From: Escherichia phage EM1 | Direction: 5' to 3' (one strand) | Sequence record: PQ571293 | Length of the DNA stretch: 44,223 nucleotides | Shown here: positions 19,443 to 21,925 of the stretch, piece by piece | Position numbering within the stretch: position 1 is the stretch's first letter | How the letters are laid out: each line of letters starts with the position of its first letter | Notes under the pieces: generated by a model | The model's database searches: none | What the model was told of the DNA's origin: nothing | The model's input: only the letters and a program-made list of their open reading frames with translations | Program-made: the position numbers and the translations under genes

Positions 19443-19468
19443 AAGGCCCCTTTCGGGGCCTTTTTCTT
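19443..19468. terminator. bidirectional rho-independent terminator (AAGGCCCC-TTTC-GGGGCCTT + T5)
   Basis: perfect 8 bp stem; T-tract on plus strand and A-tract upstream; between convergent genes. Confidence 0.65.
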
Positions 19469-20021
19469 ACAAACCTAATTTTAAAGCAATGTCTATAACG
19501 TTAGATTTAACGTCACCCGGTATGATGTAGGTGTCGCAATCTTTTACACCCTCAATATCGTACAGGTAACCACGACTATCCCCGTCAAACGTATAGCCGT
19601 CTCGATGCAAGCGAACAATTCTTACGTCATGCCCCGCGGCGACGATAGGGGTCACTTCACTGGCGAATCCGCCGTCGGACACTACAAAAACTTCGTCGCC
19701 GTCGGGCAAGTTTCCGGCAAGATACTTACCGAAATAATCGTCACCGAATATCGGTTTAATGAATTGCTCAGAAATGGCGATCATTAACTGACGACGGGAC
19801 AACCCATTAAGAAAACCCTCTGGTTTTTCTTTCCGCGACCGGTCGTCGTAGCCGTCGAGAAACTCATGGTAAGCATCCGGGCCTAACGCTGCCAGAGCAA
19901 TATTGAACATTGGATTCTTGAAACTGGTAGTCCCTTTTGCAAAGCCCATTTCTACCAGCGCCATAGCAAGTGTGTCTTTCCCGCAACCAGCAGGACCATT
20001 AAGAATAATTACCTTAGCCAT
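19467..20021 (-). CDS. P-loop nucleotide/polynucleotide kinase (putative 5'-kinase of an end-healing system)
   Basis: Walker A GPAGCGKDT at the N-terminus; GGGAG RBS; start overlaps upstream stop by 1 nt. Confidence 0.6.
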   Translation of the reverse strand: MAKVIILNGPAGCGKDTLAMALVEMGFAKGTTSFKNPMFNIALAALGPDAYHEFLDGYDDRSRKEKPEGFLNGLSRRQLMIAISEQFIKPIFGDDYFGKYLAGNLPDGDEVFVVSDGGFASEVTPIVAAGHDVRIVRLHRDGYTFDGDSRGYLYDIEGVKDCDTYIIPGDVKSNVIDIALKLGL

Positions 20022-20509
20022 TATTTATCGCTCCCGTGCGATTTTAAGTGTGTAGAGTTCCCGTTACAGTCGTATTCAGTAACCGCGTGAGTGGTTATAC
20101 CGAGGCCGCGGAAATGCTTTATTACCGCTGGCGAGTCGTCGAACGCACACAATATTCTCTCCAGCCCAATAGCGCGCAACACCTCTTCTTTAATTACGAT
20201 GTCTTTTCTGTTGTCGTGCTTGCTGCGCATTAACAGAACGTCGAACTTGACATTGTTTTTACGTAACCACTCACGAGTTTCTTCCTCGGCGTCGTCGCTT
20301 CGCCCGGTAAGGATGATTATGGTCATCCCGGTATGCCACAGCGTGTTGCACAAGTGAATGTTGTCATATATCGGCGAATCATCTTTGCAGGCCATGTTAA
20401 AAGGCTTCCACGCCCATGTTTCGTTGTAGTTATCTTTCGGCAGCAGGTGTAAGCGATGTGTTCCGTCGGCTAATGTTCCATCTAAATCGAAAATAACAAT
20501 ATCTTTCAT
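20021..20509 (-). CDS. HAD-superfamily phosphatase (polynucleotide 3'-phosphatase-like)
   Basis: N-terminal DLDGTL motif (HAD motif I, as in the T4 Pnk phosphatase domain); ATGA overlap with upstream gene. Confidence 0.65.
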   Translation of the reverse strand: MKDIVIFDLDGTLADGTHRLHLLPKDNYNETWAWKPFNMACKDDSPIYDNIHLCNTLWHTGMTIIILTGRSDDAEEETREWLRKNNVKFDVLLMRSKHDNRKDIVIKEEVLRAIGLERILCAFDDSPAVIKHFRGLGITTHAVTEYDCNGNSTHLKSHGSDK

Positions 20510-21636
20510 CCCAGCATCTCCGGTGAAATAGTTAAACGTGCGACCTCGCCATATTCGGCGCTATAAGTAATTACATTTGCACTACGGCCTGACATCCATC
20601 CGCCGCGGGAGGCGTAGGCGTCTTTAGCCGCTAAGGTTCGATGTTGCTCGACAACCATGTTACGGCTTTCTACAATCTTTTGATGGTGCAGGTGGCCTAC
20701 GTGGGCGTAGCTGTAAACACTCTCGCCGAACGCTTTGCGGAACTTGGCAATCATAACCGGTTCAATAGCGTCGAATCGTGCTTTATGCCCGTGATGGAAG
20801 AACAGCGTCGTTTTACCGTGTTGCACCATCTTGTAAACATCCGGCGACGTATCGACTAACACACGCGGCTCGTTGTCGTACAGCGTACTGAACATCTCAG
20901 CTAACCAAATCATTCCGCTTTCGTCGTGGTTCCCCTGCACGATAAGCAAGCGAACATTTTTATGCTTAACCAGCGCCATATCGATAACACGGCGGACCAT
21001 GCGAATCATGTAGCGGACCAGTTTCTGGTAGCGCGTGTCCGCGTCAAGAACATGACCGCTCGCTGGCGTAACAGCATCAAGACTATCGAAGTGCGCGAGG
21101 TCGCCCAGCAGGTTAATAACCCCAGTTCCTGCATCCGGTGCTTTCTGGAATGCAGCATCAAACCATCGGGAGAACAGGTCTTCAGCAATCTTCATATCCC
21201 AGTCGTCGCCGCTTTCATCGGCCCAGGCCAACATACCGAGATGGAAATCAGATACCGTGTAAAGATTGAGTAGCTTGTCGTCACGTTTGGTGCGGGCCGC
21301 TTTAACAGGCGCAACGGGCGTAATCTCTGATTTCATCCCTTCGATTACGGCTTTCATCAACTCGACCTGGCGTTCGGCATCGGTGTCGGTCTTAACCCAT
21401 TGCAGTTTAGTGTTACCGAACTCGTCCACCAGAGACGACGTGCCTTTAATCTTGTAGCCGTCTGGTACAAGGTGACTAACGTCGCGCCCGTGGCCTACGC
21501 CTTTCTTTGCCAGCTTCGCTTTACGGATACGAATAACGCGGTCTGAGATGCCGTATTTACGGGCGATGTCTACATTCTTCATCCCGGCGTTCAATTCTTC
21601 CTGTAACTGTTCGTCGGTTATTTTCTTCTGGGCCAT
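20506..21636 (-). CDS. calcineurin-like metallophosphoesterase with N-terminal HTH-like domain
   Basis: ordered motifs DxH (VSDFHLG), GDxxD (GDLAHFD), GNHD, HHGH, GHLHH; GAGGAAG RBS. Confidence 0.75.
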   Translation of the reverse strand: MAQKKITDEQLQEELNAGMKNVDIARKYGISDRVIRIRKAKLAKKGVGHGRDVSHLVPDGYKIKGTSSLVDEFGNTKLQWVKTDTDAERQVELMKAVIEGMKSEITPVAPVKAARTKRDDKLLNLYTVSDFHLGMLAWADESGDDWDMKIAEDLFSRWFDAAFQKAPDAGTGVINLLGDLAHFDSLDAVTPASGHVLDADTRYQKLVRYMIRMVRRVIDMALVKHKNVRLLIVQGNHDESGMIWLAEMFSTLYDNEPRVLVDTSPDVYKMVQHGKTTLFFHHGHKARFDAIEPVMIAKFRKAFGESVYSYAHVGHLHHQKIVESRNMVVEQHRTLAAKDAYASRGGWMSGRSANVITYSAEYGEVARLTISPEMLG

Positions 21637-21674
21637 GCTTACTTCCTCGTGTTTAGGATTTGTCCTATACTAGC

Positions 21675-21866
21675 TCACTTCTCGTTAACATTCGAGTTGC
21701 ACGCCCAGATTAAAATAAATACCCACGGCAGCAGAATCCAACCAAGAAACAGGTTGGCCATGAATATCGCTAATTTCGCTTTATGGTTACGGAAGTATGC
21801 GACCAGGAAAGGCGCGAAATAAGCGAGCAGCGCAAACAGAATTAAGGAAACCGGTAAACTTGACAT
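21675..21866 (-). CDS. small two-TM membrane protein, superinfection-immunity-like
   Basis: second ATG has AAGGGG RBS (the track start at 21881 has none); motif AIFMANLFLGWILLPWVFILIWA resembles the LGW...GW...IWA core of Imm-type proteins as recalled from memory. Confidence 0.45.
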   Translation of the reverse strand: MSSLPVSLILFALLAYFAPFLVAYFRNHKAKLAIFMANLFLGWILLPWVFILIWACNSNVNEK

Positions 21867-21896
21867 TTTAAACCCCTTCATTGTTGGTGTAAGTGA

Positions 21897-21925
21897 ATAG
21901 TACCCTATTATATTGGGGTGTGCAA
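21897..21925 (-). promoter_or_regulatory. sigma70-like promoter on minus strand, TTGCAC -35, 17 nt spacer, TACTAT -10
   Basis: minus-strand reading TTGCACACCCCAATATAATAGGGTACTATTCAC, nearly identical to the sequence across the window junction; upstream of the Imm-like/phosphatase/kinase operon. Confidence 0.55.

Follow-up and report, generated by a model that had tools for sequence, protein, structure and literature searches.

What do four reverse-strand genes do in the middle of a phage tail module? The question is raised by the genome of Escherichia phage EM1 (sequence record PQ571293), whose 44,223 nucleotides were analysed as a whole and are called the window here. Four minus-strand open reading frames (ORFs) are flanked by the tail tube gene (PF18906, E 3.5e-38) on one side and by genes for tail assembly chaperones (PF08748, PF23812) on the other. 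An earlier note, made from the sequence alone, placed these ORFs correctly, and its superfamily calls (an Imm-like protein, a calcineurin-type metallophosphoesterase with a helix-turn-helix (HTH), a HAD phosphatase and a P-loop kinase) agree with the domain and model evidence. It suggested that the set could be a split end-healing system, countering for instance tRNA nucleases with the help of a host ligase. Our answer is different and tentative. The cassette could be an early module for DNA breakdown and deoxynucleotide salvage in support of phage replication, combined with superinfection exclusion by Imm, a reading to which we assign a probability of roughly 45%. Its elements are as follows.

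19443-19468, both strands: hairpin resembling a bidirectional intrinsic terminator, AAGGCCCC-TTTC-GGGGCCTT with flanking T-runs.
19467-20021, minus strand: P-loop kinase of 184 aa with the Walker A motif GPAGCGKDT, a homologue of the T4 gp1-type (deoxy)nucleoside monophosphate kinase.
20021-20509, minus strand: stand-alone HAD phosphatase of 162 aa with a DLDGTL motif, from the polynucleotide kinase 3'-phosphatase family (T4 Pnk C-terminal domain).
20506-21636, minus strand: HTH-fused metallophosphoesterase (MPE) of 376 aa, of the binuclear nuclease/phosphodiesterase type.
21675-21881, minus strand: Imm-like membrane protein (PF14373), with a probable start at 21866 (63 aa).
21894-21925, minus strand: cassette promoter, TTGCAC (21925-21920), N17, TACTAT (21902-21897), overlapping an inverted repeat.

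By their coordinates, the MPE and HAD genes overlap by 4 nt and the HAD and kinase genes by 1 nt, which fits translational coupling.

The kinase is best described by comparison with T4 gp1. Pfam and NCBIfam recognised only its P-loop, with nothing specific from NCBIfam, and PDB sequences, searched with single sequences and with profiles, yielded nothing beyond P-loop or HTH matches for either the kinase or the MPE. PHROGs assigns it to phrog_139, 'deoxynucleoside monophosphate kinase' (4.9e-44). T4 gp1 is found in phrog_139 as well (1.8e-65; the query sequence was 100% identical to the T4 record), whereas T4 Pnk belongs to phrog_505 and has no phrog_139 match. A fold search also ranked gp1 (PDB 1DEK) best, ahead of an AdkA-like protein (12.8) and phosphomevalonate kinase (12.0); fungal RNA kinases scored 9.5, and T4 Pnk was outside the top 60. 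When gp1 is added to the kinase family alignment, the two are colinear once a gp1 insertion of ~33 residues (about residues 97-129), which the kinase lacks, is removed. Identity extends to 14 of the 37 family-conserved positions, including GKDT, R61, R77, D116, E122, R140 and G142. Judged by Walker A together with the catalytic Asp/Arg of the Pnk family, the kinase does not group with Pnk-type 5'-OH polynucleotide kinases; sequence profile and fold both group it with the gp1-type deoxynucleoside monophosphate (dNMP) kinases of phrog_139. Its profile aligned by hhalign to single-sequence T4 Pnk over 25 P-loop columns only (83% probability), in a comparison that, for gp1 and T4 Pnk alike, is not decisive by itself. 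On this evidence the kinase is classed as a gp1-type enzyme, a relative of dNMP kinases and not of kinases acting on RNA or DNA ends, with a substrate range that is predicted only. One difference in context is that the kinase gene is almost always paired with a phosphoesterase gene and T4 gene 1 is not.

The HAD protein leads in another direction. It matches HAD_PNKP (PF25109, E 1.3e-20, above the cutoff) and phrog_415 (7.5e-67), into which the C-terminal half of T4 Pnk also falls, and its best PDB sequence matches are Capnocytophaga Pnkp1 (4xrp) and T4 PNK (1ltq, 5uj0). BLASTP against residues 162-300 of T4 Pnk, the whole phosphatase domain, returned 27% identity (E 1e-9). The DxDGT motif lines up in this alignment, as do the R, R, D and DD positions; they correspond to D165, D167, R176, R213, D254 and D277/D278 of T4 Pnk, which are reported to be essential for its phosphatase (Wang & Shuman 2002). 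Full-length homology and aligned catalytic motif positions identify the protein, at the level of sequence, as a genuine member of the 3'-phosphatase family represented by T4 PseT/Pnk and bacterial Pnkp/Pnkp1. Like those enzymes, the cassette ties a kinase to the phosphatase, here by putative translational coupling of the genes. It departs from them in that the proteins are separate, and in that the kinase comes from another P-loop family (gp1/phrog_139 instead of Pnk/phrog_505). It also has no partner ligase: none is annotated in the collinear K1G genome, and the other mid-size ORFs in the window include none, as the earlier note had stated for the vicinity.

For the MPE, an AlphaFold model (mean predicted confidence, pLDDT, 92.5) comprises a three-helix HTH (8-44), a beta-hairpin/helix linker domain (61-102) and the MPE core (119-376). 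Five phosphoesterase motifs with metal-binding Asp, His and Asn residues are present, as in Mre11/SbcD-type enzymes; the second reads GDLAH, not GDxxD as initially reported. Across 55 homologues of 33-50% identity, the metal ligands D130, H132, D179, N236, H237, H282 and H317 are invariant, and H315 is nearly so. Pfam Metallophos scores fall under the gathering cutoffs, and family-level membership in SbcD/Mre11 was not recovered by profile comparison against the PDB (E ~0.4, marginal). The nearest structures in the fold search are the 3'-5' exonucleases/nucleases DP1, Mre11 and SbcD, and the top Foldseek matches are Mre11, the cyclic-nucleotide phosphodiesterase Rv0805 in second place, and DP1; the generic phosphodiesterases Rv0805, LpxH, MJ0936 and GpdQ nearly equal the nuclease MPEs in score. 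Compared with Mre11, SbcD and archaeal PolD DP1, the cassette protein has a unique N-terminal HTH and hairpin domain. The HTH shows weak LuxR/GerE similarity and a weak match to a 'late transcriptional activator' PHROG. No Rad50/SbcC-like partner ATPase gene is annotated in the K1G genome.

CthPnkp's healing domain falls in the lambda-phosphatase branch of MPEs (PMC2190708). The cassette MPE does not group with that lambda-phosphatase/PPP-like branch. Its modelled fold assigns it to the diesterase/nuclease type, in the branch of Mre11, SbcD and PolD DP1, and it is predicted to be neither a Ser/Thr phosphatase nor a CthPnkp-like enzyme. Of the Pnk-like set proposed earlier, family membership supports the HAD phosphatase (PF25109) and does not support the gp1-like kinase or the MPE. 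That proposal also named the findings that would count against it, a kinase among the dNMP kinases and a phosphoesterase among the Ser/Thr phosphatases; the first was obtained and the second was not.

The Imm-like protein scores 47.6 bits against Imm_superinfect (PF14373; cutoff 27.9) and matches phrog_1039 at 6e-23. Its translation shows two hydrophobic stretches, in keeping with a small membrane protein. The second ATG of the ORF (21866) is preceded by the Shine-Dalgarno sequence AAGGGG and gives the 63 aa annotated in K1G, so 21866 is likely the true start. Its score above the Pfam gathering threshold, its small size and its two hydrophobic helices agree with T4 Imm and PF14373; the cassette protein is shorter (63-68 aa), and its block of DNA entry is a prediction.

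How these parts would work together can be outlined: the family memberships, catalytic residue conservation, gene order, promoter and terminator are observed, and the enzymatic steps, substrates and expression timing are what we infer. The cassette would be transcribed from a repeated, operator-bearing phage promoter and end at a hairpin common to the tail-tube transcript. The DNA-tethered MPE would cut or trim DNA to 5'-dNMPs, and the HAD phosphatase would strip blocking 3'-phosphates from DNA ends or from 3'-dNMPs. The kinase would then turn dNMPs into deoxynucleoside diphosphates for the host nucleoside diphosphate kinase, while Imm would provide superinfection exclusion. Salvage is favoured because the kinase is of gp1 type, the MPE is nuclease-like, the neighbours belong to nucleotide metabolism, and an exonuclease and endonuclease VII stand upstream in podoviruses. 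Homologues of the kinase elsewhere neighbour genes for DNA replication and nucleotide metabolism (dUTPase, dCMP deaminase, ThyX and ribonucleotide reductase (RNR)), which supports this reading. Phages T4 and T7 reuse host DNA in an analogous way.

Gene order bears on this reading from both sides. Same-strand arrangements were counted in 80 IMG/VR loci around the closest homologues of the kinase.

Kinase directly preceded by HAD, the two often overlapping: 65 of 80 loci.
MPE (phrog_704), HAD and kinase in this order: 26 of 80 loci, ~10 of them non-Kagunavirus contigs.
MPE of phrog_221 directly upstream of the kinase: 10 of 80 loci.
Kinase directly followed by an ATP-dependent DNA ligase: 13 of 80 loci.

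Either an MPE (phrog_704 or phrog_221) or HAD directly precedes the kinase at 75 of the 80 loci. Given that MPEs of phrog_704 and phrog_221 both occur before the kinase, two unrelated MPE families share one position. Kinship between the Melnykvirinae MPE (phrog_221) and phrog_704 was considered; hhalign showed none, and they are treated as separate families.

Several observations weigh against salvage. A route of pure 5'-dNMP salvage offers no evident role for a 3'-phosphatase. The adjacency of HAD and kinase mirrors PNKP enzymes, and a ligase directly after the kinase suits end healing. Kinase identity to T4 gp1 is ~20%, and hhalign of the kinase profile with single-sequence gp1 gave a probability of 62% over the N-terminal 73 columns only, so acceptor specificity could have shifted. 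The fold search, moreover, does not part nuclease MPEs from cyclic-nucleotide phosphodiesterases such as Rv0805. Finally, E. coli has dNMP kinases of its own, and the gain from a phage copy is unproven.

Some of this evidence would suit DNA end healing, a doubtful explanation that nevertheless has to be taken seriously. Under it, HAD removes 3'-phosphates, the gp1-like kinase has taken on the role of a 5'-OH polynucleotide kinase, and the MPE trims or incises ends; the healed 3'-OH/5'-P nicks are sealed by host LigA in Kagunavirus or by a phage ligase in related podoviruses, repairing phage DNA damaged by host nucleases or in replication and recombination. The true Pnk-phosphatase affiliation of HAD, with its aligned catalytic positions, argues for this, as does the prevailing and often overlapping HAD-kinase order, in which the domains of mammalian PNKP are arranged as well. 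Podovirus contigs of ~44-45 kb (L091 at 4262-7519, L077, L081 and L082) carry MPE (phrog_704), HAD, kinase and ATP DNA ligase in a row, and contigs L078-L080, L084, L087-L090 and L095 carry ligase-type blocks as well, including MPE (phrog_221)-kinase-ligase. Together these genes amount to a complete heal-and-seal set, and the kinase is also near a ligase in Chaseviridae and in contig L012. An MPE-family nuclease from P. putida leaves 3'-PO4 ends and is encoded in a ligase-containing repair operon (PMC7826289). End healing stays live because the coupling of phosphoesterase and kinase is near-universal, the HAD is Pnk-type and a ligase frequently adjoins.

There are also objections. The kinase clusters with the dNMP kinase and not with Pnk-type kinases, and only its P-loop aligns to T4 Pnk. 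Podovirus MPE-kinase-ligase blocks directly follow 5'-3' exonuclease and endonuclease VII genes, and one contig reads DNA polymerase, then 5'-3' exonuclease, endonuclease VII, MPE704, HAD, kinase and DNA ligase. Ligase, exonuclease and endonuclease VII are, however, general replication genes, which lie together in small phages in any case; T7, too, has its ligase (1.3) near a true nucleotide kinase (1.7). Elsewhere the kinase stands in the orders ligase-kinase-dUTPase (Chaseviridae) and dCMP deaminase-MPE704-DUF4406-kinase-x-ligase (L012), or with ThyX/RNR and a HAD-like neighbour (Vequintavirus), and such dUTPase, dCMP deaminase, ThyX and RNR neighbours fit end healing poorly. The window genome itself has no ligase.

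A more specific form of this idea is less probable still. The recurrent block of an MPE of either family, a Pnk-type HAD, the gp1-like kinase and, in podoviruses, an ATP DNA ligase would constitute a dedicated phage DNA heal-and-seal pathway, built on a dNMP-kinase fold recruited as a 5'-OH polynucleotide kinase, and Kagunavirus would keep the healing half and borrow host LigA. If so, one use might be to withstand nucleases of defence or exclusion systems whose breaks have 3'-P/5'-OH ends.

The RNA version proposed at the outset is the least likely of the functional readings, and we consider it very improbable. It holds that kinase, 3'-phosphatase and a 2',3'-cyclic phosphodiesterase mend tRNAs cut by anticodon nucleases, with sealing by a host ligase. 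The closest solved relatives of HAD do include the RNA-repair enzyme Pnkp1 (4xrp) and T4 Pnk, and many generic MPEs hydrolyse 2',3'-cyclic nucleotides in vitro, among them YfcE, MJ0936 and Rv0805, structural neighbours of the cassette MPE. Yet the kinase is gp1-like and not Pnk-like, the MPE comes from the wrong branch and is widespread without HAD or kinase beside it, and no RNA ligase appears in the whole genome (K1G annotation and mid-size ORFs of the window). Host chemistry is opposed as well. RtcB, to our knowledge the sole RNA-sealing enzyme of E. coli, joins 3'-P or 2',3'>P ends to 5'-OH ends. It thus needs unhealed ends, and Pnk-type healing would destroy its substrates instead of feeding a host ligase. 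The tRNA-directed proposal consequently finds little support.

Returning to the salvage module, its four genes are not equally tied to one another, as their distribution makes clear. K1G has all four cassette genes and no ligase. Jerseyvirus horsemountain keeps the slot, promoter and terminator, and there Imm and MPE are followed by an HNH endonuclease, a small ORF and an Ant-like DNA-binding protein in place of HAD and kinase. The first cassette gene is alike (Imm) in K1G and Jerseyvirus. In Dhillonvirus BF9 a 75%-identical MPE stands by itself between lysozyme and terS genes, and the Drexlerviridae phages grams and C119, along with one Rhodobacter and one Vibrio phage, also have an MPE with neither HAD nor kinase next to it. 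At identities of at least 80%, ~52 records contain the kinase and 291 the MPE; in Jerseyvirus, Dhillonvirus and most Drexlerviridae the MPE has no HAD or kinase as neighbour, and its link to the pair is thus not obligatory. Because both Kagunavirus and Jerseyvirus carry Imm and MPE, and because Jerseyvirus has HAD and kinase replaced, comparison of the genomes marks Imm and MPE as core to Guernseyvirinae. HAD and kinase, by the same comparison, form an accessory, putatively translationally coupled pair that moves as a unit between phage groups, including Drexlerviridae and some podoviruses. Co-transcription with Imm, previously called unusual, is the norm in Guernseyvirinae. The label 'moron' suits at most the HAD-kinase pair, and a separate promoter and terminator inside a late operon agree with it; it does not suit Imm and MPE, which belong to the subfamily core.

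This split lends some substance to an unlikely alternative in which Imm and MPE serve anti-defence or regulation and HAD and kinase are unrelated cargo. The HTH-MPE would then act as a phosphodiesterase of nucleotide second messengers, a DNA-binding regulator, or an exclusion nuclease alongside Imm against superinfecting phages. Within the cassette, Imm and MPE are what stays invariant, MPE conservation reaches 97-99% among the Kagunavirus relatives, the MPE of other phages lies mostly at lysis or terminase borders, Foldseek places Rv0805 second, and the HTH has the LuxR/GerE resemblance and activator-PHROG match described above. Against this, most MPE-carrying phages have no adjoining Imm, the PADLOC defence-system models matched none of the four cassette proteins, and no library recognised a known anti-defence family.

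Further examples of the HAD-kinase pair come from other groups. In T1, Webervirus and others, HAD and kinase lie side by side. A comparison of 522 Drexlerviridae published in 2026 reports a neighbourhood of DNA repair exonuclease, polynucleotide kinase and dNMP kinase, for which its authors suggest nucleotide supply, and finds the MPE persistent in 508 of the 522 genomes (PMC13164509). That neighbourhood has phrog_704, 415 and 139 in the order of the cassette (PMC13164509). Unlike the Kagunavirus cassette, the Drexlerviridae block has no Imm gene and is not inside the tail module, and many Drexlerviridae have their MPE upstream of the lysis genes, apart from HAD and kinase. In Vequintavirus FV3 (L009, 4995-6196), a gp1-like kinase is followed by a 197-aa phrog_420/phrog_1238 protein, beside ThyX and RNR genes. 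The window HAD weakly matches phrog_420/phrog_1238, which makes FV3 another kinase-HAD-like pair with the order reversed.

The early expression assumed for the salvage module rests on its promoter. The minus-strand promoter given earlier at 21897-21925 is exactly there, conserved and repeated in the window: TTGCAC-N17-TACTAT has 8 of 12 consensus matches and was overlooked by a generic sigma-70 scan. Alignment with K1G and Jerseyvirus shows the conserved hexamers as TTGCA and TAyTAT. An inverted repeat, TAATAG-N4-CTATT(C)A, spans the -10 element; the promoter is conserved in K1G too, and the Jerseyvirus repeat is a perfect TAATAG-TGTC-CTATTA. By its sequence, this repeat looks like an operator. 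The 17-nt promoter core TAATAGGGTACTATTCA has 6 copies in the window against 0.08 expected by chance, which puts the promoter far beyond a chance match, and the 32-nt pattern has 3 copies against 0 expected. Copies of the motif TTGCAC-N9-TAATAGGGTACTATTCA are located as follows.

1294-1325, plus strand.
12358-12389, minus strand.
21894-21925, minus strand.
38129-38145, plus strand.
40754-40770, plus strand.
40798-40814, plus strand.
44205-44223 joined to 1-17, plus strand.

Two copies directly precede a gene for a 71-aa Cro/CI-type HTH protein (40843-41058, PF01381). This placement suggests a shared operator and an early regulon. The cassette promoter probably belongs to a set of phage promoters under the control of a Cro-like repressor, and it is probably early. 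The scan had offered ATCACA-N17-TATAAT at 21935-21907; it was rejected as the main promoter, as its -35 is not conserved in Jerseyvirus. Another cassette-type promoter motif, at 12358-12389, drives a second reverse-strand insert, this one within the head genes (11636-12343, minus strand), which encodes a 235-aa D12-class (Dam-like) DNA methyltransferase (phrog_56, 5e-35; PF02086). K1G annotates no gene in the matching slot.

At the other end of the cassette, the hairpin at 19443-19462 was rated terminator-like on both strands, in agreement with the bidirectional terminator described before. Its stem is unchanged in K1G and in Jerseyvirus horsemountain, despite a different adjoining minus-strand gene in the latter. 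These features identify it as a putative convergent terminator common to the tail tube gene (plus strand) and the kinase gene (minus strand). Rfam matches to Atu_C8 and Histone3 at this site were dismissed as chance matches to a hairpin.

As to novelty, the window is a Kagunavirus-type genome (Guernseyvirinae), and it appears to span the whole of it: the two ends join within one copy of the repeated promoter motif, as expected of a circularly opened genome. Megablast with the 2.8-kb cassette region matched 330 phage records, 50 of which cover at least 80% of the region; the best relatives are Kagunavirus BCH953P1 at 92.5%, RP180, a Raoultella phage, at 90.8% and the coliphages K1ind1-3 and K1G at ~90%. 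The ORF18-21 cassettes of K1G, K1ind1-3, K1H, RP180 and other Kagunavirus have the identical gene set, order, orientation and slot, with 89-92.5% nucleotide identity across 2.8 kb. Sequence drift is the sole difference (kinase ~90-96%, MPE 97-99% identical). Their GenBank labels read superinfection immunity, metallophosphoesterase (DNA repair exonuclease), polynucleotide kinase-phosphatase and deoxynucleotide kinase. The cassette is thus a standard Kagunavirus feature, annotated before in many GenBank genomes, with each gene from a recognised family. A literature search on it turned up genome announcements, a single comparative paper and no experimental work.

With near-identical copies annotated in dozens of Kagunavirus genomes, the cassette itself matters little. 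The recurrent combination of a gp1-like kinase and a preceding phosphoesterase (Pnk-type HAD and/or MPE) across Guernseyvirinae, Drexlerviridae and podoviruses is a fair target for simple biochemistry. Clustered at 50%, the MPE family comprises 4649 representatives, and 2041 phage records contain it; no member of this HTH-MPE family (>4,600 representatives, ~2,000 phage genomes) or of the kinase subgroup appears to have been characterised. A decision between salvage and end healing would correct or confirm the labels 'DNA repair exonuclease', 'polynucleotide kinase' and 'dNMP kinase' in thousands of phage records, and many phages with cassette-family annotations are therapy candidates.

Beyond the cassette, a conserved non-coding block at 21944-22008 (plus strand) lies upstream of the chaperone gene. 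Its match to Rfam int-alpA (RF02996) scores 31.8 bits, under the gathering threshold of 35.8. RNAalifold on nine Guernseyvirinae (Kagunavirus, Jerseyvirus, Cornellvirus) found the same three stems, independently predicted; changes are compensatory at 4 of the 14 pairs, and the G-U pairs are compatible with the plus strand only. The block may form a structured 5' leader of the operon running from the tail assembly chaperone to the tape measure gene. The K1G annotation joins the two chaperone ORFs, here at 22034-22450 and 22549-22815 (plus strand), into one frameshift product. A strong terminator-like hairpin at 22586-22609 (plus strand; 9-bp stem, 8 GC pairs, TTTTT) lies within the second of them, just before the start of the tape measure gene. 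The replication module contains three 165-aa HNH_3 homing-endonuclease-like genes on the minus strand, at 32866-33363, 33859-34356 and 36912-37409.

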